Source: Ectothiorhodospiraceae bacterium
GTDB lineage: Bacteria > Pseudomonadota > Gammaproteobacteria > Nitrococcales > Aquisalimonadaceae
DNA: 24,000 nt
NCBI GenBank assembly: GCA_050485425.1
Contig: JBJHBJ010000008.1
Span: 30,432 to 54,431, forward strand
Direction: 5' to 3'
The position numbers and the translations under genes were made by a program. Of the stretch, positions 1-24,000 are shown piece by piece (position 1 is the stretch's first letter; each line of letters opens with the position of its first letter). The notes below the pieces were generated by a model. That model did no database searches. It saw only the letters and a list, made by a program, of their open reading frames with translations, and was not told the DNA's origin.

Positions 1-1074
1 GTGCTCCGCGACCTGGGCCTGCTGGACCAGCTGGAACGCCGTTGCGACCGCGTGGACGCGCTGGACGGACGGGCAAGCGGCGGGCGGCGCGTGATGAACG
101 TACGCTACACCGACCTTGCTCCGGACACCTACGCGCTGGGCGTCCACCGCGCCAACCTGCTGCAAGTGCTGCTGACCGCCGCGGCCGGCCTCGACATCCA
201 CTGCGGCTCCGAGGTGGAGCGCGTCCTGCCCACGGGTGATCGTACCGCACTGGTACTGGCGAACGGCGAGCGGCACGAGGGTTTTGACGGTCTGGTCATC
301 GCGAACGGCACGCAATCCCGACTGCGTAGCCAACTGGACATCCCCCAAAGCTCCACGCCCTACCCTTGGGGCGCGCTCTGGTCCATCTGCCCGGCACCGG
401 AGGAACTGCGCCAGCCGATGCTGCAGCAACGCTACGCCGGGGCATCGGTGATGATCGGCATCATGCCCACCGGACGGAATCCCGCCACGGGCGAGCCCTG
501 CGTGAGCTTCTTCTGGAGCCTGAAAACCGCTGATCACGCGCTGTGGAACCGCACCCCGTTCGATGACTGGAAAACAGAGGTGCTGGGACACTGGCCTGAG
601 ATCGAACCGGTGCTCGCATCCATCGGCTCACGGAAACAATTGCTGCTGGCCACATACGCGGACGTGCGCATGCGATGCTGGCATGCGGGCCGCATGGCAG
701 TACTCGGCGACGCCGCCCACGGCATGAGTCCCCAACTCGGCCAGGGAACAAACCTGGCCCTGGTAGATGCCATGGTGCTCGCCAGCTGTCTTAGGAGACA
801 CCCGGACATCCCTTCGGCATTCGCCGCCTACTCGAACCAGCGCCGCCGGCACCTGCGGTTCTACCAGTTCGCCAGCCGCTGGCTGACGCCGCTGTTCCAG
901 TCCGACAGCCGCGTGGCCGCCTGGCTGCGCGACCTCGGTTTCCCCCTGACGCCACGCCTGCGGTTCACCCGGCAGGAGGCGGTGCGCACCGTTGCCGGGC
1001 TGAAGACCGGGCTGGCATTCGACCGGCCACTGATGACACTCGACCGGGAGGAGGCCGTTTCCACCTCGGCCTGA
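1..1074 (+). CDS. FAD-dependent monooxygenase/oxidoreductase (UbiH/salicylate-hydroxylase-like), 5' end probably truncated by the window edge
   Basis: The ORF runs from position 1 to a stop at 1072-1074. The C-terminal FAD-binding fingerprint GDAAHGMSPQLGQGTNLALVDAMVLA is typical of class A flavoprotein monooxygenases. No N-terminal GxGxxG motif is visible, so the true start probably lies upstream of the window. Confidence 0.8.
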   Translation: MLRDLGLLDQLERRCDRVDALDGRASGGRRVMNVRYTDLAPDTYALGVHRANLLQVLLTAAAGLDIHCGSEVERVLPTGDRTALVLANGERHEGFDGLVIANGTQSRLRSQLDIPQSSTPYPWGALWSICPAPEELRQPMLQQRYAGASVMIGIMPTGRNPATGEPCVSFFWSLKTADHALWNRTPFDDWKTEVLGHWPEIEPVLASIGSRKQLLLATYADVRMRCWHAGRMAVLGDAAHGMSPQLGQGTNLALVDAMVLASCLRRHPDIPSAFAAYSNQRRRHLRFYQFASRWLTPLFQSDSRVAAWLRDLGFPLTPRLRFTRQEAVRTVAGLKTGLAFDRPLMTLDREEAVSTSA

Positions 1075-12200: not shown

Positions 12201-13091
12201 ATGGACCGGTTTACCGCTCTGCGGGTTTTCAAGCGGGTGGTCGAGCTGAACGGGTTCACCGCCGCCGCCCGCGACCTCGGCCTATCGAACGCGGCAGTCA
12301 GCAAGAACGTGAACGAACTCGAGGCACACCTGGGTGCCCGGCTGCTGACCCGCACCACCCGGCGCATGAGCCTGACGGAAGCCGGCGAAGCCTACTACCA
12401 CCGTTGCGTGCGCATTCTGGAAGATCTGGAAGAGGCGGATACCGTCGTTACCAGCATGGCCGCGGCGCCGCGCGGCGTGCTCCGCGTCACCGCCCCGATG
12501 TCGCTGGGCCTGGTCAGGCTCTCCGGCGTCATTCCCCGCTTCCTGGCCCGTTATCCCGAGGTGAAGATCGACCTGAACCTGGACGACCGCGTGGTCGATC
12601 TCATCGACGGCGGCTACGACATCGCGCTGGGAACCCGTTCGACGCTGCAGGACTCCAGCCTGGTCTCCCGCCGCCTCGGCCCCCTCCCCCGCGTGGTCTG
12701 CGCTACGCCGGACTACCTGGAGCACCACGGCGTCCCGGAGACCCCGCAGGATCTCGCCCATCACCGCTGCCTGCTGTTCAGCCTGATGCATTCACCGCGG
12801 GAGTGGTCGTTCGAGCGGCAGGGAACCAGGGAAACCGTACACGTGGATGGCCCGTACAGCGTCAACAGCTCCCTGACCATCCGCGAAGCGCTGCTCCAGA
12901 GCGTGGGCATCACGCTGATTCCGAGAGCCTACGTCGAAGACGCACTTGCCAACGGCACACTGGTCACGGTACTGGACGACTGGCAGCCATCGGAACAATC
13001 CGTGTACGCCATCTTTCCCTCGGCACGTTATCTGTCGCCCAAGGTGCGGGCATTCATCGATTTCCTGGTCGAGCGCTTCTCCGAAGAATGA
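12201..13091 (+). CDS. LysR family transcriptional regulator
   Basis: A 296-aa protein. The N-terminal wHTH MDRFTALRVFKRVVELNGFTAAARDLGLSNAAVSKNVNELEAHLGARLLTRTTR is typical, and a LysR substrate-binding domain follows. Confidence 0.9.
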   Translation: MDRFTALRVFKRVVELNGFTAAARDLGLSNAAVSKNVNELEAHLGARLLTRTTRRMSLTEAGEAYYHRCVRILEDLEEADTVVTSMAAAPRGVLRVTAPMSLGLVRLSGVIPRFLARYPEVKIDLNLDDRVVDLIDGGYDIALGTRSTLQDSSLVSRRLGPLPRVVCATPDYLEHHGVPETPQDLAHHRCLLFSLMHSPREWSFERQGTRETVHVDGPYSVNSSLTIREALLQSVGITLIPRAYVEDALANGTLVTVLDDWQPSEQSVYAIFPSARYLSPKVRAFIDFLVERFSEE

Positions 13092-13155
13092 CGGCGTCGT
13101 GAAATCTGGCGTAAGCTGCCGTGAGCATGCCAGCGCGATCTTGAGGAGGCCCGTC

Positions 13156-13704
13156 ATGGGGACGCATTTCTCTGTCTTCGATACGGCAATGGGCCGTTGC
13201 GGCATCGTCTGGCAGGAGCGGCAGATCCGGGGGACCTACCTGCCGGAACGGAACGAGTCCGCGCTGCGCGACCGCATCCGGGAGGAACACCCGGGCGTCG
13301 AGGAAAGCGCGCCATCCGCGACGATCCGGTCCATCGTCGACGCCATCGTGCGCCTGATGGACGGCGAGGCGGTCGATCTGTCCGGCGCCGGGCTGGATAT
13401 GGCCGGTATCTCCACCTTTCACCGCCGGGTCTACGAACTGGCGCGCACCATCCCTCCCGGCCAGACCCTGACCTACGGCGACATCGCCAGGCTGCTGGAT
13501 GCCCCCGGTTCGGCCCGCGCCGTGGGCCAGGCGCTGGGCCGAAACCCGTTCCCCATCATCGTCCCCTGCCACCGCGTGCTGGCGGCCGGAGGCCGGTCCG
13601 GCGGCTTTTCCGCCGAGGGCGGCGTGAGGACCAAGCTGCGCATGCTCGCCATTGAGCAGGGAGCGTGGGTTCCCGGGCTTGCCGGCGATACAGCCAGGCC
13701 ATGA
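13156..13704 (+). CDS. ogt: methylated-DNA--protein-cysteine S-methyltransferase (Ogt/MGMT family)
   Basis: I trimmed the start to ATG 13156, with GAGGAGG at 13143-13149. The active-site motif is IIVPCHRVL (PCHR). Confidence 0.85.
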   Translation: MGTHFSVFDTAMGRCGIVWQERQIRGTYLPERNESALRDRIREEHPGVEESAPSATIRSIVDAIVRLMDGEAVDLSGAGLDMAGISTFHRRVYELARTIPPGQTLTYGDIARLLDAPGSARAVGQALGRNPFPIIVPCHRVLAAGGRSGGFSAEGGVRTKLRMLAIEQGAWVPGLAGDTARP

Positions 13705-14366
13705 AGAGCATCGCGGCGCCACACCACCCCTACGAATTCGACGTACCCGCCGCACTGGAGCACCTGCGTGCCAGGGATCCGGTACTGGCCGGGGTGATGG
13801 ACCGGGTCGGCCCGTTCGCGCTACGGATCAGCGATACACCCACGCCCTTTGGGATGTTGTCGCAGGCGCTGGTCTACCAGCAGCTTTCCATCAAGGCTGC
13901 CGGCACCATCTTCGGGCGTTTCCGTGCGCTGTTCGGGCCTGATGTCCGCTGGCCGACACCCCGCCAGGTACTCGGCGTGGACCTTGAGACCCTGCGCGGT
14001 GCCGGCCTGTCCATGGCCAAGGCCAGAGCGGTCACGGATCTGGCCGAAAAAACCGAGCAGGGCATCATTCCTCCGTTGAAATCGCTCCGGGAAATGCGCG
14101 ACGAAGAGGTGATCCGGTGTCTGGTGCAGGTGCGCGGCATCGGTCGGTGGACGGCCGAGATGTTCCTGATTTTCGCGCTCGGCCGGCCGAACGTGCTGCC
14201 GATGGACGACCTGGGCATGCGCAGGAGCTTCCAGTTGGCCTATGGGCTGAAGCAGCTTCCGGAGCAGCGGCGCCTTGAAAGGCAGGCCAAGCGCTGGAGG
14301 CCCTATTGCACCGTGGCAACCTGGTACCTTTGGGAGGCGCTGGAGGTTACCCCCGACAAGGGTTGA
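13701..14366 (+). CDS. DNA-3-methyladenine glycosylase II family protein (HhH-GPD, AlkA-like, short form)
   Basis: I trimmed the start to ATG 13701, which forms an ATGA overlap with the ogt stop. The HhH motif is VRGIGRWTAEMFLIFALGRPNVLPMDDLGMRR, with the catalytic Asp region. Confidence 0.85.
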   Translation: MKSIAAPHHPYEFDVPAALEHLRARDPVLAGVMDRVGPFALRISDTPTPFGMLSQALVYQQLSIKAAGTIFGRFRALFGPDVRWPTPRQVLGVDLETLRGAGLSMAKARAVTDLAEKTEQGIIPPLKSLREMRDEEVIRCLVQVRGIGRWTAEMFLIFALGRPNVLPMDDLGMRRSFQLAYGLKQLPEQRRLERQAKRWRPYCTVATWYLWEALEVTPDKG

Positions 14367-14418: not shown

Positions 14419-14698
14419 GGCAATCGCCTGCGGCGATTACCTCCCTACGCCGGTTCCGCTCAAGCGTAGGGTGCTCAGAGCCGGAGGCGATGCGCACCGA
14501 TCACGCCCATGGTGCGCATCGCTGCGCTCTGAGCACCCTACGATCTGCCCGTGTCCGGGCTGTCAGCAGGCGTAGGGTGTGCACCACAACGTGGTGCGCA
14601 CCATTCCCAGGCTCGGGTCGGTGCGCAGGCCTTGCGGCCTGTACACCCTACGCGGGTCCTCATCGATGGTATCCGGTGGATGCCGCCGCGCTCCATCC
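14419..14698. repeat. composite REP-like structured repeat, copy 2 (longer version)
   Basis: The element opens with a 10-bp hairpin at 14419-14441. A CCCTACGC-N13-GCGTAGGG hairpin follows at 14443-14471. Unit A is a complete 76-nt hairpin at 14466-14541, with 16-bp outer and 12-bp inner stems. Unit B lies at 14572-14664. By hand alignment, unit A matches copy 1 at 43 of 44 positions and unit B at 84 of 93. A degenerate GGTGGAT...CTCCATCC motif lies at 14675-14698. Confidence 0.85.
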
Positions 14699-14789
14699 CT
14701 GGCAAGCAGCGCACGGGTGAAATGTGTCGACGAATGGGCCTATAGTGACAGCTACACACAGGAACCCAACCGGCACAAGGAGTCTGCCC

Positions 14790-15218
14790 ATGTTTCCCTG
14801 GATGCTGTTCCCCTGGTTGAGCCTGCCTGCGGCATCGGGCCTGTACCGCTGGCCATTGAGCGGCGATGTCTCTCAGGACATCACACCACTGACCAATCTC
14901 TTCTCGCCGCAACTGTCCATGCACTTTGCCGGCAACCAGGAGATCGAGCGCGAGGTGGTCTCCCAGGTCGCCAGCTACGGCAAGCAGCTGGGCATGCTGA
15001 CCGAAGCCGTGCTGGCCGTGGCCGGTGACAGCAAGGACCCCGCCGTGGAACGGCTGCGCGAGACGCGGGACGCCGTGGAAGACATCAAGGCGCGCCATCA
15101 GACGCAGGCGGCGAAAGCCGCCGAACAGGCCATGGAACGGCTTCGCCGGACCGACGAAGCGGCGTTCCGGAACCTGCTCCGCCAGTTTTCGGACACTACA
15201 CCGCCAGATAACGGCTGA
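14790..15218 (+). CDS. hypothetical protein (142 aa), hydrophobic/aromatic N-terminus and helical charged C-terminal half
   Basis: ATG 14790 is preceded by AAGGAG at 14777-14782. The codons are GC3-rich. The sequence reads MFPWMLFPWLSL...PLSGDVSQDITP...VASYGKQLG, followed by an Ala/Glu/Arg-rich helix. I recognise no family. The 3' end overlaps urtE convergently. Confidence 0.5.
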   Translation: MFPWMLFPWLSLPAASGLYRWPLSGDVSQDITPLTNLFSPQLSMHFAGNQEIEREVVSQVASYGKQLGMLTEAVLAVAGDSKDPAVERLRETRDAVEDIKARHQTQAAKAAEQAMERLRRTDEAAFRNLLRQFSDTTPPDNG

Positions 15219-15888
15219 TCTCGTCCGCATCGCAGTCGGCGCTGGCGACTTCGTGAACCAGGCGGCCGGACTCCAGCACCAGCAGCCGGTCGGCGATCTC
15301 CATCGTGAAGCTCAGCACCTGTTCAGACACCAGGATGGTGATCTCGCGCATCCGGCGGATTTCGTTCAGCGTCTGGGCGATCTCCTTGATAATGGACGGC
15401 TGGATTCCCTCGGTGGGCTCGTCCAGCAACAGCACCTTGGGCTCCGAGACCAGCGCCCGGGCAATGGCCAGTTGCTGCTGCTGACCACCGGAGAGATTGC
15501 CGCCCTTGCGATGACGCATTTCTCGCAGCACCGGGAACAGAGAGAATATCTCCTGTGGCACCGTCTTGCGGTTACGGGCGGTTTCCAGCCCGGCCTGGAT
15601 GTTTTCCAGCACCGTCAGGTTCGGGAAAATCATCCTCCCCTGGGGAACGTAGGCCATGCCCGCCGCGACGCGGGCATGGCTGGGCAGTCCGCCCAGTTCA
15701 CGCCCATCGAGCGTCACGCTACCGCCAGAACCCTTCAGGATGCCGATCAGCGTCTTGAACAACGTGGTCTTGCCCATGCCGTTCCGACCCATCACCGCCA
15801 CCGTCTCGTTGCGCGAGGCAACGAGATCCAGGCCATGTATCACCTCGCTCTGGCCATAACTCGCCGTTAATCCGCTGACTTCCAGCAT
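15196..15888 (-). CDS. urtE: urea ABC transporter ATP-binding subunit UrtE
   Basis: A 230-aa protein with Walker A GRNGMGKTT, the signature LSGGQQQ and Walker B LLLDEP. It is the last gene of a urtABCDE-ordered cluster. Confidence 0.9.
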   Translation of the reverse strand: MLEVSGLTASYGQSEVIHGLDLVASRNETVAVMGRNGMGKTTLFKTLIGILKGSGGSVTLDGRELGGLPSHARVAAGMAYVPQGRMIFPNLTVLENIQAGLETARNRKTVPQEIFSLFPVLREMRHRKGGNLSGGQQQQLAIARALVSEPKVLLLDEPTEGIQPSIIKEIAQTLNEIRRMREITILVSEQVLSFTMEIADRLLVLESGRLVHEVASADCDADEISRYLAV

Positions 15889-15904: not shown

Positions 15905-16651
15905 TTAGTGACCCAGGTACACGTCGATCACGCGCCGATCCGATTGCACGCTGTCCATGTCGCCCTCGGCCAGAATCACGCCCTGATGCAACACCGTGAC
16001 CTTGCGCGCAATCCGCTTGACGAAATTCATGTCGTGCTCGATGACGATCACCGAGCGGCCCTCGGTGATCGTGTTCAGCAGCTCGGCCGTCTGCTCCCGT
16101 TCCTTCACGCTCATGCCGGCCACGGGCTCGTCCAGCATCAGCAGTTCCGGATCCTGCATCAGCAGCATGCCGATCTCCAGCCATTGCTTCTGGCCGTGGC
16201 TGAGCAGTCCCGCTTCCTTGTCCAGCAACTCCTGTACGAAGACCGCCTCGGCCACCTCGTCGATCTTCTCCAGCACCTCGGCGTCCCTCTTGAAGGCGAG
16301 CGCCCCCCAGACTCCGCGGCCACGCGGGTACGAGACTTCCAGATTGTCGCGGACACTCAGGCTGTCGTAGATGGAGGGGGTCTGGAACTTTCGTCCCACC
16401 CCGGCAGCAACGATGCGGTGCTCCGGCAGCCGGGTCAGTTCGGTGCCCTTGAACTTGATGGAGCCGGCACTGGCCTTGGTCTTGCCGCAGATCAGATCCA
16501 GCAACGTCGTCTTGCCGGCGCCGTTGGGTCCGATCACCACGCGCAGTTCATCGTGGTCCACGTAGAAATTGAGACCGTTGATGGCCTTGAAGCCGTCAAA
16601 GGACACGGTGAGATCCTCGATTGCCAGCAGGAAATCGGTATTCGTGCTCAT
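15905..16651 (-). CDS. urtD: urea ABC transporter ATP-binding protein UrtD
   Basis: A 248-aa protein with Walker A GPNGAGKTT, the signature LSHGQKQ and Walker B LMLDEP. Its start overlaps the urtC stop as ATGA. Confidence 0.9.
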   Translation of the reverse strand: MSTNTDFLLAIEDLTVSFDGFKAINGLNFYVDHDELRVVIGPNGAGKTTLLDLICGKTKASAGSIKFKGTELTRLPEHRIVAAGVGRKFQTPSIYDSLSVRDNLEVSYPRGRGVWGALAFKRDAEVLEKIDEVAEAVFVQELLDKEAGLLSHGQKQWLEIGMLLMQDPELLMLDEPVAGMSVKEREQTAELLNTITEGRSVIVIEHDMNFVKRIARKVTVLHQGVILAEGDMDSVQSDRRVIDVYLGH

Positions 16652-17859
16652 GAGCGTGCCTCCTGTACGCCGACGTCGGTCTCCTCCGCTCCTGCCTGCG
16701 CATCCCGGCCCGCACGGCTGGCAGACGTCGCAGAGGGTGTCGGAGGCCGGGGCGGCGAGGAACGCTGACGACCCGAGGAACGCAGCAGCGCCGGCATCCG
16801 CGCCGCGTACTTGCCGTAGAGACCGGCCAGCCCATGGGGCAGGAACAGCACCACCGAAATGAACACGGCACCGATCAGGAACAGCCAGAGCTGCGGATAG
16901 GCCTCGGCGAACATCACCTTGGCGAAGCCCACGATCAGCGAACCGTACACCGCCCCGAGCAGCGACAGCCGCCCGCCCACGGCGGCGAAAATGACAAACT
17001 CGATGGACGGCACGATGCCCACGAACGAGGGCGACATGAAGCCTTCCTGCAACGTGAACATGGCACCGCCTATACCGGAGAACACCCCCGCCAGGCAGAA
17101 GATGAACACCTTGAAGTTGGCCACGTCATAGCCGGAAAACCGCACCCGGTCCTCGCGGTCGCGCATGGCCACCAGGATGCGACCGTACTTGGTGGAGAGC
17201 ACCCACTTGGCCAGCAGGATCACACCCAGCAGCAGCGCAGCGTTCACGAAATACAGCGTGACCAGTGACTCGTCGCTGGTGATGCTCCAGCCCTTCAGGG
17301 TGCGCAGGTCGGTGATGCCGTTGGCCCCGCCGGTATAACCCTGCTGACCGATGATCAGAATGGTCATGATCACCGCGATGGCCTGGGTAATGATGGCGAA
17401 GTACACGCCACTGACCCGCCGCTTGAACATGGCGATGCCGATCACGAAGGCGAAGGCCGCCGGCACCAGAACGATGGCGAACAGCGTGAAGGTAAGGCTC
17501 TGGAACGGTTCCCAGAACCACGGCAGCTCGGTGATCCGGTTCCAGTCCATGAAGTCCGGAATGCCCGGGGTGGTCTGGATGGACGTAGCCTCGGGGTCCG
17601 ACGCCTCCAGTTTCAGGAACATGGCCATGGCATAACCACCCAGGCCGAAGAACACCCCCTGCCCCAGGCTCAGGATGCCGCCGTAGCCCCAGCACAGCAC
17701 CAGCCCGACGGCGACAAAGGCGAACGAGAGGAAACGTCCGGTCAGCGTCAGCTGGTCCACGCCCATGGTCATGGGGAACACCACGAGAACCAACGCCGCT
17801 AGAAGGAGCAGGCCGATCAGGCCGCTTCTGCCACCGATGAAGTCCGGTAGTCTGTTCAT
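16648..17859 (-). CDS. urtC: urea ABC transporter permease UrtC (with a Pro/Ser/Arg-rich C-terminal tail)
   Basis: A 403-aa LivM-type permease at the expected position in the operon. The last 45 aa or so are low-complexity (RSSGRQRSSPPRPPTPSATSASRAGRDAQAG...). Confidence 0.9.
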   Translation of the reverse strand: MNRLPDFIGGRSGLIGLLLLAALVLVVFPMTMGVDQLTLTGRFLSFAFVAVGLVLCWGYGGILSLGQGVFFGLGGYAMAMFLKLEASDPEATSIQTTPGIPDFMDWNRITELPWFWEPFQSLTFTLFAIVLVPAAFAFVIGIAMFKRRVSGVYFAIITQAIAVIMTILIIGQQGYTGGANGITDLRTLKGWSITSDESLVTLYFVNAALLLGVILLAKWVLSTKYGRILVAMRDREDRVRFSGYDVANFKVFIFCLAGVFSGIGGAMFTLQEGFMSPSFVGIVPSIEFVIFAAVGGRLSLLGAVYGSLIVGFAKVMFAEAYPQLWLFLIGAVFISVVLFLPHGLAGLYGKYAARMPALLRSSGRQRSSPPRPPTPSATSASRAGRDAQAGAEETDVGVQEARS

Positions 17860-17882: not shown

Positions 17883-18806
17883 CTAGCGGCGTACCTTGCT
17901 GGCAAACAAGCCTTCCGGGCGCATCATCAGAATGCCGATGACGATGAGCAGCGTGACCACCTTCGCCATGGAACCGCTGATGAAGAACTCCAGGATCGAC
18001 TGCCCCTGGGCAATGGAGAACGCCGACGCCACCGTCCCCAGCAGGCTGGCGGCACCGCCAAAGACCACAACCAGAAACGTGTCGACGATGTAGAGCGAAC
18101 CGCTGGTGGGGCCGGTGGAGGAAATGGTGGTGAAGGCTGCTCCGGCGATGCCGGCAATGCCGCAGCCGATGGCGAACGTGATCCTGTCCACCTTGCGGGT
18201 ATTGATGCCGACGGCGCCGCTCATCTCGCGGTTGGCCGTGGTACAGCGCACGCGCAGCCCCCAGCGCGAACGGAAAAGGAACCAGGCAACCCCGCCCGTC
18301 ACCAGGACCGTCAGCACCATGATCGCCATGCCGTTGATCGGGATGTCGATCATCATCGTCGGCCGATAGGAGCCCTGCAGCCACTCCGGCAACCGCACGC
18401 TGACCTCGCGCGCGCCAAACGTGGACCGGAATGCCTGCTGCATGACCAGCGCCAGCCCCCAGGTGGCCAGCAGCGTATCCAGCGGCCGGTGGTAGAGATG
18501 GCGTATGAGCACCAGCTCCACCAGCCAGCCGGCGATGAATGCCATGCCGAATGCGGCCGGAATGGCAAGGAACACGTAGTAGTTCAGCAGGCCGGGGGCA
18601 TGGCTGAGCACCAGCGAGGAGATGAAGTAGGTGGTATAGGCGCCGATCACCATGAACTCACCGTGAGCCATGTTGATCACGCGCATCTGACCGTAGATGA
18701 CCGCCAGCCCCAGCGCCATCAGCAGCAGTACGCTGAACAGGCTCAGGCCGGCGAACCCCTGCATGGCGAAGATGGCCAGTAGTTCCTGTGTGGTGAAGTC
18801 ACTCAT
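17883..18806 (-). CDS. urtB: urea ABC transporter permease UrtB
   Basis: A 307-aa LivH-type permease containing the motif VINMAHGEFMVIGAY. The RBS GGGGAG lies upstream of ATG 18806. Confidence 0.9.
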   Translation of the reverse strand: MSDFTTQELLAIFAMQGFAGLSLFSVLLLMALGLAVIYGQMRVINMAHGEFMVIGAYTTYFISSLVLSHAPGLLNYYVFLAIPAAFGMAFIAGWLVELVLIRHLYHRPLDTLLATWGLALVMQQAFRSTFGAREVSVRLPEWLQGSYRPTMMIDIPINGMAIMVLTVLVTGGVAWFLFRSRWGLRVRCTTANREMSGAVGINTRKVDRITFAIGCGIAGIAGAAFTTISSTGPTSGSLYIVDTFLVVVFGGAASLLGTVASAFSIAQGQSILEFFISGSMAKVVTLLIVIGILMMRPEGLFASKVRR

Positions 18807-18935: not shown

Positions 18936-20204
18936 CTACTGGTAACCCTCCGGGAACGGATTGGGCTCGATCAGATCCTCCGACTCCCACACCACGGAGG
19001 CCTGGCCGTCGCCGTTCCAGCGGCCGATCCGGGTGCGGCTCCACAGGTGGTGATTGTCATGCACCTTGACGTAGCCTTCCGGCGCGGTGTCCAGCTCGAT
19101 GCCGGGCAGATGCTCCCGGATCCTGTCGACGTCGAAACTGCCGGCGGCCTCCACCGCGGCCTTCCAGAGCCACGGCCCCAGATAGGCGGCCTGGGTCACG
19201 TCGCCGATCACGCTGTCGTCACCCCAACGTTCCTTGAACGCCTGCACGAAGGCCTCGTTGTTGCCGTTCTCCAGGCTCTGGAAGTACTTCATGGAGGAAT
19301 AGAAGCCCTCGACGTTCTCGCCGCCGATGCCCAGCACCTCGTCCTCGGTCACCGAGATGGTCAGCATTTTCTGGTTGCTGCCGTTGATGCCGGCGGCGTT
19401 GAGCTGACGGAACCAGGCCACGTTGGAACCGCCCACCACGGCGGCGAAGATCATGTCCGGCCGGCGCAGGCGTATGCGATTGATGGCGGACCCGAACGAG
19501 GTGTGGCCCAGCGCGTAGTAGTCCTCGCCGACCACCTGGCCACCCAGCACATCCTCGATGTGAATGCGGGCGATCTTCATCGACGTGCGCGGCCAGATGT
19601 AGTCGGAACCGATCAGGTAGAAAGTCCGCGCGCCCTGCTCGTGCCAGGCCCAGTCGATGCCGGCGAGGATCTGCTGGGTCGCTTCCTGGCCGGTGTAGAT
19701 GACGTTGGGCGACTCCTCCAGGCCCTCGTAGAAGGTGGGGTAGAACAGCATGCCGTTCTCGCGCTCGAAGATCGGCAGCACCGCCTTGCGGGATGCGGAG
19801 GTCCAGCAACCGAACACCGCCGCCACGTTGTCCTGCCGCAGCAGCTTGCGGGAACGGTCGGCGAACGTGGGCCAGTCGCTGGCACCGTCTTCCCGGACGA
19901 TCTCGATCTGGCGACCCAGCACGCCGCCCTGGGCATTGATCTGCTCGATGGCCAGCGTCTCCGCCTCCACGGAACCGGTCTCGCTGATGGCCATGGTGCC
20001 GGTCAGCGAATGCAGGATGCCGACCCGGACCGTGTCATCGGTGACCGCCAGGCCGGTGGTGTTCACCTCCGACGTCGGGTACTCGGAGGATGCGGCGGCT
20101 ACGCCGCCCATGAGCAGAGCCAGCGACGCCATCGCCAGCCCGGCCAGCAAGGTGCGGCGCCACCGCGACACGACCCCGTGATGGATGGATGCAGTACGTG
20201 ACAT
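18936..20204 (-). CDS. urtA: urea ABC transporter substrate-binding protein UrtA
   Basis: A 422-aa protein with a signal peptide (LLAGLAMASLALLMGGVAAA). It has the UrtA signature VGILHSLTGTMAISE. The RBS AAGGAG lies at 20211-20216 on the minus strand. Confidence 0.9.
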   Translation of the reverse strand: MSRTASIHHGVVSRWRRTLLAGLAMASLALLMGGVAAASSEYPTSEVNTTGLAVTDDTVRVGILHSLTGTMAISETGSVEAETLAIEQINAQGGVLGRQIEIVREDGASDWPTFADRSRKLLRQDNVAAVFGCWTSASRKAVLPIFERENGMLFYPTFYEGLEESPNVIYTGQEATQQILAGIDWAWHEQGARTFYLIGSDYIWPRTSMKIARIHIEDVLGGQVVGEDYYALGHTSFGSAINRIRLRRPDMIFAAVVGGSNVAWFRQLNAAGINGSNQKMLTISVTEDEVLGIGGENVEGFYSSMKYFQSLENGNNEAFVQAFKERWGDDSVIGDVTQAAYLGPWLWKAAVEAAGSFDVDRIREHLPGIELDTAPEGYVKVHDNHHLWSRTRIGRWNGDGQASVVWESEDLIEPNPFPEGYQ

Positions 20205-20310
20205 TCAAGACTCCTTGAGCTGCGCGCTGACAGCCGGTTGCTAACGAAACCCGTGCGCCGGGCACTGTTCGGAGGCTAAGATTGTCGGTACGTGCTGCAC
20301 TGCAAAACAA

Positions 20311-20326
20311 TACGTCGATTGACGTA
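20311..20326. promoter_or_regulatory. candidate operator: palindrome TACGTC-GATT-GACGTA in the urtA / sensor-kinase divergent region
   Basis: Perfect 6-bp inverted arms are separated by 4 nt. On the urtA strand the palindrome lies immediately upstream of a weak sigma70-like pair, TTGTTT-N18-GACAAT. Confidence 0.3.
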
Positions 20327-20505
20327 TGGCCGGGCAGCCGGCTTCCACGCAATATGCTCCCCAGGGGCACAGTGATTCCGCGGCAGGCGAACACGGTCGG
20401 GGGGCCGTCGCCCGCCACTGATGGGCACAGGCAGGCGAGGATCAGACGATCGGTCCGCCGTCTGTCCCCCGGCAGGGCATCGCTGCTGCCGGCAGGGGGA
20501 AGACC

Positions 20506-23500
20506 GTGGCAGTTGATGTACAAGCGGCAGACAAAGACGACCCGGGCGGTACCAGCCGACAGCGGGTCGTCCGGTTCCGGCGTACCTACAACCAGTGGGT
20601 GGCGAACCAGACCCTGGAGGATTTCGCGCTGCGCTTTACCGCCAAGAAGGCGCGACGCTTCTCCCGCTTCCAGGTCGCCAGTACCGCGCTGGGCGCGGTG
20701 TCGTTCCTGGCCCTCGAGGCCATCGGCGGTACCATCACCGTCGCTTACGGCTTTGGCAACGCGGTCACCGCCATTCTGGTGGTGGCGCTGCTGATCTTCG
20801 CCACCGGTCTGCCCATCACCTACCACGCGGCGCGCTCGGGACTGGATATCGATCTGCTCACCCGTGGCGCCGGGTTCGGCTATATCGGCTCCACCGTCAC
20901 TTCGCTGATCTACGCCTCCTTCACGTTCATCTTCCTGGCCATCGAAGCAGCCATCATGGCCATCATGCTGGAGCTCTGGATCGGCTTGCCGCTGTGGGCG
21001 GGCTACGTGGTCAGTGCGGTTGTGGTGATTCCGCTGGTGACCCACGGCATCACGCTGATCAGCCGTTTCCAGGGCTGGACGCAACCGGTCTGGCTGGTGC
21101 TGCACATCCTGCCGTTCATCTTCATCGGCGTGCACGGCCTCTACGACATGGGCGGCTGGACCCGTTTTGAAGGCACGCACCCGCAGGCCGGCAGTGGATT
21201 CAACCTGCTGTTGTTCGGCGCCGCCGCCTCGGTAGTGTTCGCGCTGGTGGCACAAATCGGCGAGCAGGTGGACTACCTGCGTTTCCTGCCGCGGGACCGG
21301 CGCGGAGGGCGGTTGGGCTGGTGGGCCGCCCTGCTCGCTGCCGGTCCCGGCTGGATCATACCCGGTGCGCTGAAGATGCTGCTGGGGTCGTTCCTGGCCT
21401 ACATGGCCATCAGCCTGGGCTCGTCCCCGGAAAGCGCGGCAGAGCCGACGGAGATGTACCTGGTCGCATTCCGGCAGGTCACCAGCAATCCGGATATCGC
21501 GATAGCGCTCACCGGCATCTTCGTCATCGTCTCCCAGATGAAGATCAACGTGACCAATGCCTATGCGGGCTCCATCGCCTGGTCCAACTTCTTCTCACGG
21601 CTGACCCGCAGCCATCCCGGCCGGGTCGTCTGGCTGGTATTCAACGTGGCCATCGCGCTGCTGCTGATGCAACTGGGCATCTACAAGGCGCTGGAGCAGA
21701 TCCTGGGGCTGTACTGCCTGGTTGCGGTGGCCTGGGTAGGCGCCCTGGTGGCGGATCTGGTCATCAACAAACCGCTCGGCCTCAGCCCCCGCCATATCGA
21801 GTTCAAGCGGGCCCACCTCTACGACATCAACCCGGTCGGCATCGGCTCCATGCTACTGTCGCTGGCGGTCGGCGTGCTGGCCTACATCGGCCTGTTCGGC
21901 GAGACCGCACAGGCGCTGGCGCCGTTCCTGGCCCTGGCAATCCCTTTCGCGTCCGCGCCGCTGATCGCACTGGCCACGGGCAGCCGCTACTACATCGCCC
22001 GCACGCCGCGGCGCGACTGGAAGGAGGGCGACAGCATTCGCTGTCATGTCTGCGAACACCGCTTCGAGACCGAGGACATGGCCCAGTGTCCGGCTTACGG
22101 GGGGCCGATCTGCTCGTTATGCTGTTCGCTGGATGCCCGCTGCAACGACGCCTGCAAGCCCCATGCGCGCATCTCCGCACAGATGCACGGCGTGCTGACC
22201 TGGCTTTTCCCGCCCACCGTGGTGGAGCGCCTGCATTCCCGTTTCGGCCACTACCTGTTTCTGCTCACGGTCATGCTGGCCGTGGTGGGGTTCTGTCTGT
22301 CGGTGATCTACGTGCAGGCCACGCTGGACGACAGCGCCGCCCCAGAGGTGATCGGTGCCACGCTGTGGAAGACGTTTTTCGTGCTGGCGCTGATCTGCGG
22401 CGTGGTCGCCTGGCTGATCGTGCTGGCCCATGAGAGCCGGAACGCGGCAGAGAACGAATCCCGCTACCAGAACGAATTGCTGATGGAGGAAATCGAAGCA
22501 CACGACCGCACCGACCAGGAGCTGCAGCGGGCCAAGGAAGCCGCCGAGGCCGCCAACCAGGCCAAGAGCCGCTACATGGTCGGCATGAGCCACGAACTGC
22601 GCACCCCGCTGAACGCCGTTCTGGGCTACGCGCAGATTCTGGAACGCGACGACCAACTGCCCGCCAATCGGGTCGAGGCCGTCCGGGTCATACGCCGCAG
22701 CGCGGAGCATCTGTCCGGCCTGATCGACGGCGTGCTGGACATCTCCCGCATCGAAGCCGGCCGGCTGCAGCTCTATCGCGAGGAAGTCCGCATTCGCGAA
22801 CTGCTGGATCAACTGGTGCAGATATTCCGGCTGCAGGCCCAGGAAAAGAACATCGCCTTCCACTACCGCTGCGCCGACCGCCTGCCCGTTGCCGTTTACG
22901 CGGACGAGAAACGCCTGCGTCAGGTACTGATCAACCTGCTTTCCAACGCGGTCAAGTTCACCGACAACGGCCAGGTCAGCCTGAACGTCAGCTACGGAGG
23001 CCAGGTGGCCACCTTCCGGGTTCGCGACAGCGGCGTCGGCATTTCGCAGGAAGACCTGGCGCGCATCTTCAAGCCGTTCGAACGCATCAGCCACGGACCC
23101 GCCAAACCCGGCATGGGCATCGGGCTCACCATCACCAAGCTGCTGGCCGAGATCATGGGAGGGGAAATCGAGGCCAACAGCGCCCCCGGAGAGGGCAGCG
23201 AGTTCGTGGTGCGCATCATGCTGTCCGCCGTTCCGGCCGGGCGCGACGACGGACAGGGACAGCGCCGCATCGTCGGCTACGAAGGCCGGCGCATCCGGGT
23301 GATCGTGGCAGACGACGACGGGCCGCACCGCGGCATCATGCAGGAATACCTCGGCGCCATCGGCTTCTCCGTCACAGTGGCCACCGACGGCGCGGAGTGC
23401 CTGGCACTTGCCGACGCGGTGAGACCCGACCTGTTCCTGCTGGATATCACCATGCCGGGCATGAACGGCTGGGATCTGGCGAACGCGCTTCGGGCACGCG

Positions 23501-23946
23501 GACAGGCCGGCGGCATCATCATCGTCTCTGCCGACGCATCCGGGCTCATGCGCTTCAGCCTGCGGGAAGGACCCTGGAACGATTATCTGACAAAGCCCGT
23601 GGACCTGACCCAACTGCTGGAGAAGATCCGCCGTCTGCTGGCCCTGAAATGGATATTCGGTAACCCGGAGCAAGCCATCGGCCCGGCACCTTTACTGGCC
23701 GGCGAACCGCACGCGGTCCCTTCGGCGACCGAGCTGTCCGCCCTCAGGCGGCTGGCGGAAATCGGCCATGTACAGGCGGTTCGTGAAAAACTGGATGCCA
23801 TCGGCCAGGACATGCCGGACTGCCGCGACTTCATCACCCGGGCCAGTTTCCACGCCAGCCGCTTCGAGTTCGACCAACTGGTCACATTCATCAGGAGTGT
23901 GGAACGTGAAAACCCTGACCAGGACCATGACCATCAAGTCACCTGA
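20506..23946 (+). CDS. hybrid sensor histidine kinase/response regulator with an N-terminal 12-TM NCS1 (cytosine/purine permease)-like domain
   Basis: The start is GTG 20506, with GGGGGAAG upstream. Residues 25-495 form about 12 hydrophobic helices with a CodB-like GLDIDLLTRGAGFGYIGS segment. Residues 513-550 hold 8 Cys. Two more TM helices span residues 583-640, followed by a coiled coil. The H-box SHELRTPLN has H696 at nt 22591. The N-box is NLLSNAVKFT, and the G-boxes are DSGVGI and GMGIGL. The receiver has DD at residues 936-937, D980 at nt 23443 and K1030. A C-terminal region of about 100 aa is unassigned. Confidence 0.9.
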   Translation: MAVDVQAADKDDPGGTSRQRVVRFRRTYNQWVANQTLEDFALRFTAKKARRFSRFQVASTALGAVSFLALEAIGGTITVAYGFGNAVTAILVVALLIFATGLPITYHAARSGLDIDLLTRGAGFGYIGSTVTSLIYASFTFIFLAIEAAIMAIMLELWIGLPLWAGYVVSAVVVIPLVTHGITLISRFQGWTQPVWLVLHILPFIFIGVHGLYDMGGWTRFEGTHPQAGSGFNLLLFGAAASVVFALVAQIGEQVDYLRFLPRDRRGGRLGWWAALLAAGPGWIIPGALKMLLGSFLAYMAISLGSSPESAAEPTEMYLVAFRQVTSNPDIAIALTGIFVIVSQMKINVTNAYAGSIAWSNFFSRLTRSHPGRVVWLVFNVAIALLLMQLGIYKALEQILGLYCLVAVAWVGALVADLVINKPLGLSPRHIEFKRAHLYDINPVGIGSMLLSLAVGVLAYIGLFGETAQALAPFLALAIPFASAPLIALATGSRYYIARTPRRDWKEGDSIRCHVCEHRFETEDMAQCPAYGGPICSLCCSLDARCNDACKPHARISAQMHGVLTWLFPPTVVERLHSRFGHYLFLLTVMLAVVGFCLSVIYVQATLDDSAAPEVIGATLWKTFFVLALICGVVAWLIVLAHESRNAAENESRYQNELLMEEIEAHDRTDQELQRAKEAAEAANQAKSRYMVGMSHELRTPLNAVLGYAQILERDDQLPANRVEAVRVIRRSAEHLSGLIDGVLDISRIEAGRLQLYREEVRIRELLDQLVQIFRLQAQEKNIAFHYRCADRLPVAVYADEKRLRQVLINLLSNAVKFTDNGQVSLNVSYGGQVATFRVRDSGVGISQEDLARIFKPFERISHGPAKPGMGIGLTITKLLAEIMGGEIEANSAPGEGSEFVVRIMLSAVPAGRDDGQGQRRIVGYEGRRIRVIVADDDGPHRGIMQEYLGAIGFSVTVATDGAECLALADAVRPDLFLLDITMPGMNGWDLANALRARGQAGGIIIVSADASGLMRFSLREGPWNDYLTKPVDLTQLLEKIRRLLALKWIFGNPEQAIGPAPLLAGEPHAVPSATELSALRRLAEIGHVQAVREKLDAIGQDMPDCRDFITRASFHASRFEFDQLVTFIRSVERENPDQDHDHQVT

Positions 23947-24000
23947 ACAGCATCAGCGGGATACCGTTCTGGTGGTCGACGACTCCCCGGAGACGCTGGG
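23927..24000 (+). CDS. response regulator receiver protein, N-terminal fragment (continues beyond the window)
   Basis: The frame from ATG 23927 reads MTIKSPEQHQRDTVLVVDDSPETL, a typical receiver beta1 strand with the acidic DD pair. An in-frame GTG at 23906 is an alternative start. The gene overlaps the kinase stop by 20 nt and stays open to the window end. It is too short to appear in the ORF track. Confidence 0.55.
   Translation, partial: MTIKSPEQHQRDTVLVVDDSPETL

Follow-up and report, generated by a model that had tools for sequence, protein, structure and literature searches.

What does a histidine kinase sense when its N-terminal half is predicted to resemble a complete membrane transporter, and which genes does it control when its own gene lies back to back with an operon annotated for urea uptake? 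The question is raised by a stretch of 24,000 nucleotides from an Ectothiorhodospiraceae bacterium (contig JBJHBJ010000008.1, positions 30,432 to 54,431; hereafter, the window), where a hybrid sensor kinase gene and a response-regulator gene are transcribed divergently from urtABCDE. In soil, in sea water and in hosts, urea and small amides rank among the major sources of nitrogen, and general nitrogen control is the only regulation usually described for the genes of their uptake. The best explanation that we can offer, and one that we consider probable, is that the kinase and the regulator form a dedicated two-component system for the use of short-chain amides and/or urea.

The Kinase and Its Partner Regulator

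The kinase gene opens with a GTG codon, just 5' of which lies GGGGGAAG, and encodes a protein of 1146 amino acids. It is a real gene rather than a chance open reading frame (ORF), because at least 8000 homologues exist in 90%-identity clusters and 1637 representatives in 50%-identity clusters, 422 of these with E ≤ 1e-30. The architecture is very common and by no means a rarity; some members of the family are called 'purine-cytosine permease-like protein' in JGI annotation. The cytoplasmic half combines the H-box histidine, the HATPase_c domain and the fused receiver aspartate of a hybrid kinase. The phospho-accepting residue is H696 (codon 22591–22593), and its H-box, MSHELRTPLN, is kept in at least 95% of 78 homologues. 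The receiver aspartate is D980 (codon 23443–23445), conserved along with the KP motif; both H696 and D980 occur in at least 95% of the same homologues.

The last ~100 residues of the kinase were modelled as a confident helical bundle, for which no fold match was found in the PDB at E < 0.9. We considered this tail as a possible HPt domain and rejected the idea, since its sole helix-borne histidine, H1088, is a tyrosine in most homologues and no PDB fold matched it. The kinase gave no match to Pfam Hpt either, and no HPt gene was seen at the locus.

The response-regulator gene overlaps the kinase stop codon (23944–23946) by 20 nucleotides, has AGGA upstream of its ATG, and leaves the window before its end. 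An exact-sequence look-up of the kinase led us to a public contig of 6.9 kb (L090), which is 100% identical to window positions 20208–24000 over 3793 nucleotides and extends 3.1 kb further. There the regulator is complete (L090 3720–4634, the same DNA as the window from 23927 onward); its start reads MTIKSPEQHQRDTVLVVDDSPETL and aligns with full-length regulators elsewhere. Pfam places a receiver (REC) at residues 14–125 and GerE at residues 243–295, and this arrangement of a receiver and a C-terminal GerE helix-turn-helix domain is that of the NarL/FixJ (LuxR-type) regulators. The ~110 residues in between, with the pattern ALDxxGR...W.TPQA...E.LLRL and an invariant Trp and Glu, match no Pfam family and no solved structure, and could provide a second, cytoplasmic input.

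We compared the locus with 80 loci from Alpha-, Beta- and Gammaproteobacteria, taken as one genome per species with 10-kb flanks; they were retrieved with a 97-sequence alignment of the sensor family and are 56–66% identical in the sensor region. A homologue of the REC-LuxR regulator (~300 residues) lies directly 3' of the kinase gene in 76 of them. Three of the other four loci end at or just past the kinase gene, and the fourth has a 225-residue ORF only. Most of the regulator ORFs detected overlap the kinase stop by 4–20 nucleotides.

The urt-Type Operon and the Nature of the Signal

Across a shared control region of 301 bp, the kinase gene faces a complete urt-type operon, composed of genes for a periplasmic binding protein (UrtA) and for the two permease and two ATPase subunits (UrtB–UrtE) of an ATP-binding cassette (ABC) transporter. 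All five subunits exceed the NCBIfam cut-offs TIGR03407–03411, UrtA being the nearest to its own. An operon of this type is adjacent and divergent in 67 of the 80 loci and lies within 10 kb in 8 more; it was absent from five, two of which have no upstream sequence. The initial annotation, made from the letters of the window alone, had described a hybrid kinase of this size, a regulator gene overlapping its stop codon and a complete urea importer on the other side of a 301-bp region. Each of these elements is present where it had been placed, and the linkage with urt genes is strongly conserved.

The UrtA sequences of these loci are of two types. In 59 loci, UrtA is 64–77% identical to that of the window, and fmdA follows urtE in 52 of the 53 loci of this type with enough sequence, then usually fmdB and often an aliphatic amidase gene. 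In 16 loci, UrtA is only 35–40% identical, UrtB is long (~540 residues), and urease genes follow where detected. UrtA of both types passes the TIGR03407 cut-off; therefore, the annotation 'urea ABC transporter' cannot tell them apart. The authors of the SIMBAL paper came to the same conclusion for blr0968/0969 of B. japonicum, which adjoin the formamidase gene blr0972 and the amidase gene blr0973 (PMC3098086). Judged by its sequence, the transporter of the window belongs to the subgroup linked to formamidase and aliphatic amidase, not to the urease-linked one. In a neighbour-joining tree, the window kinase pairs with that of a Halomonas metagenome-assembled genome (L088) among the formamidase-linked kinases, and the urease-linked kinases form several separate clades.

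The window itself contains no urease gene, and no remnants of fmdA, amiE or fmdB were found in it even at E ≤ 5. The formamidase genes lie here on the opposite flank, beyond the regulator gene, where L090 continues with a second copy of the palindromic box described below, an ORF of 85 codons (orf85), fmdA and fmdB. The fmdA product is a formamidase (NF045496, 565 bits against a cut-off of 500), and the gene after it encodes an FmdB-family zinc-ribbon protein. As for orf85 (L090 4778–5035, between the second box and fmdA), it has no family match and no counterpart in the other loci examined. In L088, the closest relative (83% identity in UrtA and 72% in the kinase), the regulator gene is followed by amiE, an AmiB-like AAA ATPase gene, fmdA and fmdB. 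The product of this ATPase gene (AAA_2/ClpB_D2-small, L088 11880–12818, between amiE and fmdA) is presumably comparable to AmiB of the Pseudomonas amidase operon.

The ~770 bp downstream of urtE (window 14424–15195), a position occupied by fmdA in most relatives, hold no convincing gene. An ORF of 230 codons that overlaps urtE (14538–15230, minus strand) was judged spurious: it has no family match and no homologue in the 80 loci, and its product is rich in Arg, Gly, His, Pro and Cys.

Could the kinase be a urea-specific sensor that controls a true urea importer? Such a reading would agree with the cut-offs passed by UrtA–UrtE, with the roughly 16 of 80 homologous kinases whose urt operons are followed by urease genes, with one free-standing relative of the sensor domain that adjoins an archaeal urease operon, and with the reported induction of the Methylophilus Fmd cluster by both formamide and urea (PMC10781810). 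Still, we regard it as unlikely: the UrtA of the window is of the formamidase-linked type, its kinase falls among the formamidase-linked kinases, and the locus runs on into fmdA–fmdB behind the second box, with no urease gene within 24 kb. Because of this UrtA subgroup and of fmdA–fmdB at the same locus, a short-chain amide appears at least as likely to be the signal as urea. The initial annotation had named urea or a related small nitrogenous solute, and the related solute fits the present evidence at least as well as urea.

Predicted Fold of the Sensor Half

An AlphaFold2 model of residues 1–670, built from the 97 sequences, reached a mean pLDDT of 88.6 and a pTM of 0.86. It comprises twelve transmembrane (TM) helices, a Cys-rich module of four short strands, amphipathic helices and two more TM helices. 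The best Foldseek match in the PDB was CodB (7qoa; E 2e-9, target TM-score 0.80–0.82, 19% identity), and the top five matches were all CodB or Mhp1 (2jln/4d1a/2x79), with E from 2e-9 to 2e-7 and target TM-scores of 0.62–0.82. Other LeuT-fold families (the SSS members SiaT, DUR3 and SGLT2, as well as Nramp, AdiC and LeuT) ranked beneath them. In hhalign, the 97-sequence profile aligned with the single E. coli CodB sequence at a probability of 66.6% (E 5.4e-5) over 202 columns, with TM1–TM6 in register and with GEQVDYLRF of the sensor paired with TADFVRF of CodB. The modelled sensor shares with CodB (7qoa) and Mhp1 (2jln) the 12-TM topology, and its D(Y/F)(L/V)RF motif after TM6 aligns with CodB; it differs from them in sequence (16–19% identity), in the added Cys-rich module, in the fusion to a kinase and in the predicted class of substrate.

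The gathering score of PF02133 was reached neither by residues 1–500 nor by the whole kinase (no match at E ≤ 0.1), and a distant relative (P0269) scored 17.9 bits against a cut-off of 23.5. We conclude that the model describes a divergent NCS1-type fold, which by the Pfam criterion stands outside PF02133. An NCS1/CodB-type transporter had been proposed for this half from the letters alone: the structural part of that proposal stood, as CodB and Mhp1 are the matches obtained, and the Pfam part did not.

The Cys-rich module, zinc-ribbon-like and predicted to be cytoplasmic, contains eight cysteines (C513, C516, C528, C536, C539, C540, C546 and C550). C513, C516, C536 and C539 are invariant, and the other four are present in at least 90% of the 97 sequences, among which are free-standing permeases; the module may bind a metal. 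The TM hairpin that follows it (TM13–TM14) is also seen in the model, so that the Cys-rich linker and the two-helix hairpin recognised earlier both hold. TM14 runs in the model as one unbroken helix to residue 669, just ahead of the DHp domain.

Free-Standing Relatives of the Sensor Domain

The 12-TM domain and the same eight-Cys C-terminal module also occur as free-standing proteins of ~555 residues, common in Bacillota, Actinomycetota, Chloroflexota, Acidihalobacter and Sulfolobales. Their name at NCBI is 'purine-cytosine permease family protein', and three of them carry precomputed PF02133 matches. All five of those that we examined (L081 8001–9668, L083 8001–9662, L085 6001–7680, L086 6001–7779 and L087 6001–7689) adjoin genes for formamidase, FmdB, aliphatic amidase or urease. 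The neighbours are FmdA_AmdA, Zn_ribbon_8 and CN_hydrolase (aliphatic amidase) in Alicyclobacillus acidocaldarius, a complete urease operon and a split amidase gene in Saccharolobus caldissimus, fmdA-fmdB-amiE in Acidihalobacter prosperus, an amidase gene in Kyrpidia, and genes for a binding protein, FmdA and an amidase in Amycolatopsis. The free-standing family, which is large and for which Pfam has no model, looks like one of uncharacterised amide/urea permeases.

Both forms meet in Acidihalobacter, where a permease-fmdA-fmdB-amiE operon is divergent from genes for a kinase of 1137 residues and a REC-GerE regulator of 292 residues, and where the kinase N-terminus is 53% identical to the adjacent permease. 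The alignment of 65 free-standing permeases has 146 columns conserved to at least 95%, and in 126 of them the kinase-fused forms show the same residue. Taken together, these two observations make the sensor domain look, by sequence, like a permease paralogue that has retained the conserved core of the permeases. Four positions switch between the free-standing and the kinase-fused forms, namely G64A, G148A, S354A and S358A, the last two of them in TM8. In LeuT-fold transporters, TM8 often bears residues of the cation site.

These relatives also bear on another possibility, namely that the 12-TM domain binds no solute itself and acts as a co-sensor that reports how active or occupied the ABC transporter is, for instance through contact with UrtA or UrtBC. 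The linkage with urt-type operons is nearly universal, and co-sensing by transporter–kinase pairs is established in other systems. We find this possibility quite improbable, however, given that the same type of kinase stands beside a permease-fmdA operon without urt genes (L085) and in loci without a urt gene within 10 kb (L061 and L062), and that the sensor retains residues conserved in the free-standing permeases.

A Candidate Operator in the Shared Control Region

Between urtA and the kinase gene lies a perfect 18-bp palindrome, ATACGTCGATTGACGTAT, at 105 nucleotides from the urtA ATG and 178 nucleotides from the kinase GTG. Allowing one mismatch at most, the pattern ATACG-N8-CGTAT occurs in 54 of 67 homologous control regions. 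There are 58 such sites in 23.8 kb of control region and 10 in the remaining 1.34 Mb of these loci, an enrichment of ~300-fold. The palindrome in the control region is the sole exact match in the window. The five outermost bases of each arm keep their identity in Alpha-, Beta- and Gammaproteobacteria alike, and the centre is variable, either GTC..GAC or GC....GC. Read in the direction of urtA, the palindrome has within 2–5 nucleotides after it a conserved stretch that resembles TGCnnnGCAnCA and could include the −35 element.

Further copies of the box stand at L090 4639–4656, 5 nucleotides past the regulator stop and ahead of orf85-fmdA; ahead of urtA, amiE and fmdA in L088; ahead of fmdA in L030; and, in Acidihalobacter, between the kinase gene and the permease-fmdA operon. 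Overall, the palindrome is likely to be the operator of the LuxR-type regulator, and the local control of the urt genes that had been proposed for this pair finds support in this conserved, operator-like sequence of the shared region. A one-mismatch copy, ATACGCGGACGTGCGCAT, lies at window positions 654–671 inside a gene for an FAD-binding monooxygenase; it is probably meaningless, because chance alone would give ~0.17 such sites in each window. A search for sigma-54-like elements in the control region, made by eye without a formal test, found none.

Amidase operons of Pseudomonas are under antitermination control, and the palindrome, read in the sense of urtA, has the score of a terminator-like hairpin with TGTTTTG behind it. 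Nevertheless, it is hardly credible that the palindrome is an RNA element of the urtA leader, such as a hairpin for termination or attenuation, in place of a protein-binding operator: the T-run is absent from most loci (for example, from all the Bradyrhizobium loci), what is conserved across the three classes is the sequence of the arms and not merely their pairing potential, in L090 and L088 the box comes directly after the regulator stop and upstream of the next operon, the regulator has a LuxR-type DNA-binding domain, and Rfam found nothing in the window or the control region.

Proposed Mechanism and Points against It

We suppose that the sensor originated as a paralogue of an NCS1-type amide/urea permease and that a solute, formamide or acetamide and possibly urea, would enter the central site of the 12-TM domain; the sensor might also transport it. 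A change of the alternating-access type would then pass through the zinc-ribbon module and the TM13–TM14 hairpin into the long signalling helix and raise autophosphorylation at His696. In the simplest reading, the phosphate would go from H696 straight to the REC-LuxR regulator, the gene of which is presumably coupled in translation to that of the kinase. The fused receiver, with Asp980, would probably be a modulator or a phosphate sink, because no HPt domain is present. A dimer of the phosphorylated regulator would bind ATACGYN6RCGTAT, that is, the box adjoining the probable −35 region of the urtA promoter and the second box ahead of orf85-fmdA-fmdB, just beyond the end of the window. Binding would turn on high-affinity uptake by UrtABCDE together with formamidase.

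A bolder version of this scenario would make the NCS1-like module and the eight-Cys zinc ribbon a ligand-gated 'transceptor' for formamide, acetamide or urea, with the zinc ribbon and the TM hairpin as a previously undescribed transmission device in a STAC-like role. We put it forward tentatively and hold it to be rather doubtful. In this version, the free-standing permeases, which also include the zinc ribbon, may signal as well, for example to the FmdB zinc-ribbon proteins encoded next to them.

Several points weigh against the proposed amide/urea two-component system. Each step of its mechanism is computational in its basis. For the NCS1 assignment, the basis is a structure that was predicted and an hhalign score of moderate strength: residues 1–500 have no Pfam match even at E ≤ 0.1, residues 1–650 have none in Pfam or NCBIfam, and searches of all PDB sequences with phmmer and with a family profile returned chance matches only. 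The four alanine switches of the kinase-fused forms could mean that transport has been lost. The route of the phosphate is uncertain, because no HPt was found for a hybrid kinase. The box is missing, at one mismatch or fewer, from 13 of the 67 control regions, most of which carry the variant CTACGTCATTTGACGCAT, and a sigma-70 scan of the control region gave no consensus promoter. Finally, the neighbouring genes suggest amides at this locus and urea in other clades, so that either could be the ligand.

Comparison with Known Systems

A complete LeuT-fold transporter domain likewise serves as the N-terminal sensor in the SLC5/STAC kinases of the CbrA/CbrB, CrbS/CrbR (MxtR/ErdR) and RpuS/RpuR systems (PMC5715377, PMC9100948, PMC7918813). 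CrbS resembles the window kinase further: it is a hybrid kinase that includes a receiver, and its partner is a LuxR-type regulator that switches on genes for the uptake and catabolism of a small solute; CrbR binds the ACTU inverted repeat at −52 to −36, just upstream of −35 (PMC5715377). In contrast to these kinases, the transporter domain of the window is NCS1-like and not of the SLC5/SSS family, and the position of the linker is filled by the eight-Cys zinc-ribbon-like module and the two-TM hairpin; the window kinase gave no Pfam match to SSF or STAC, and it has no PAS domain. The predicted signal is an amide or urea, a nitrogen source, as against acetate, pyruvate and histidine, and the operator sequence differs from that of CrbR. 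The window system works like the SLC5/STAC kinases and stands outside their family.

The amide-inducible aliphatic amidase operon of P. aeruginosa is controlled by AmiC, a soluble sensor resembling a binding protein, and by AmiR, an RNA antiterminator; unlike the window system, AmiC/AmiR has no membrane kinase and no phosphorelay. The predicted target set is shared with fmdCABDEF of Methylophilus methylotrophus and blr0968–blr0973 of Bradyrhizobium japonicum: a Urt-like five-component ABC transporter, FmdA, the zinc-ribbon protein FmdB and an aliphatic amidase (PMC10781810, PMC3098086). The descriptions of those clusters present FmdB as a putative regulator and mention neither an adjacent kinase–regulator pair nor an operator (PMC10781810, PMC3098086).

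The genes themselves have appeared in print. A Dechloromonas genome paper lists, without comment, a kinase of 1131 residues and a receiver protein of 308 residues beside urtA (PMC2907700), and a paper on the genome of Ectopseudomonas guguanensis lists the gene pair beside urtA, with fmdA (ACMHYQ_02750) directly after urtE (ACMHYQ_02755) (PMC13296017). In the full-text literature, we found no study characterising the kinase, the regulator or the operator, in keeping with the view of the initial annotation that the system is uncharacterised; the coverage of subscription journals is thin, so one could be missed. The pair of the window is apparently an unstudied relative in kind of the transporter-fused sensor kinases CbrA and CrbS.

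Features of the Window

Table 1. Positions of the features discussed, in window coordinates.
Feature	Position	Strand	Basis or remark
Hybrid sensor histidine kinase gene	20506–23946	+	1146 aa; ORF, translation, Pfam, homologues
NCS1-like 12-TM (LeuT-fold) sensor domain (predicted), residues ~35–495	20608–21990	+	AlphaFold2 model, Foldseek, hhalign
Codon of residue 64	20695–20697		G64A switch
Codon of residue 148	20947–20949		G148A switch
Codon of residue 354	21565–21567		S354A switch
Codon of residue 358	21577–21579		S358A switch
Cys-rich zinc-ribbon-like module (CxxC ... CSLCCSL..C..C), residues ~508–552	22027–22161	+	Cytoplasmic (predicted); conservation and model
Two-TM hairpin TM13–TM14, residues ~579–640	22240–22425	+	Model helices 579–605 and 613–669
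HisKA/DHp domain, residues 688–752	22567–22761	+	Pfam PF00512, E 9.6e-17
HATPase_c catalytic domain, residues 800–905	22903–23220	+	Pfam PF02518, E 1.9e-25
Fused receiver (Response_reg), residues 932–1042	23299–23631	+	Pfam PF00072, E 4e-20
C-terminal helical bundle, residues ~1074–1143	23725–23934	+	Model pLDDT >90 in the stretch
Response-regulator gene, 5' end	23927–24000	+	ATG at 23927; continues beyond the window; 304 aa in full
Shared urtA/kinase control region	20205–20505	.	301 bp; flanking ORF coordinates
Perfect 18-bp palindrome	20310–20327	.	Candidate operator of the LuxR-type regulator; consensus ATACGYN6RCGTAT
urtA-type periplasmic binding protein gene (amide/urea subgroup)	18936–20204	-	TIGR03407, 512.7 bits against a cut-off of 492.75
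urtB	17883–18806	-	Above NCBIfam cut-off (TIGR03409)
urtC	16648–17859	-	Above NCBIfam cut-off (TIGR03408)
urtD	15905–16651	-	Above NCBIfam cut-off (TIGR03411)
urtE	15196–15888	-	Above NCBIfam cut-off (TIGR03410)

Elsewhere in the window (12946–14366), a gene for a protein of 252 residues with a 6-O-methylguanine-DNA methyltransferase domain (residues 158–238) overlaps the start of an HhH-GPD glycosylase gene. The two look like an Ada/Ogt-AlkA-type alkylation-repair pair, and they adjoin a gene for a LysR regulator (12201–13091).

Implications

With a membrane sensor of its own, and with an operator and a regulon that can be predicted, the use of urea and amides would gain a layer of substrate-specific control, and this in a family that numbers more than 1,600 clusters at 50% identity and extends over Alpha-, Beta- and Gammaproteobacteria. 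Our comparison also suggests that many genes carrying the annotation 'urea ABC transporter' are part of operons for formamide or acetamide. In practical terms, the putatively amide-inducible pair of promoter and regulator could potentially be used as a biosensor. If our explanation is true, NCS1 would be a second transporter superfamily, besides SLC5, that was recruited as the input of a kinase, and the system would offer a natural case of an alternating-access movement converted to a kinase signal. Should the more tentative transceptor version also prove true, these proteins would represent a very large class of bacterial receptors derived from transporters, the second of its kind, and the first dedicated sensor of extracellular amides or urea.

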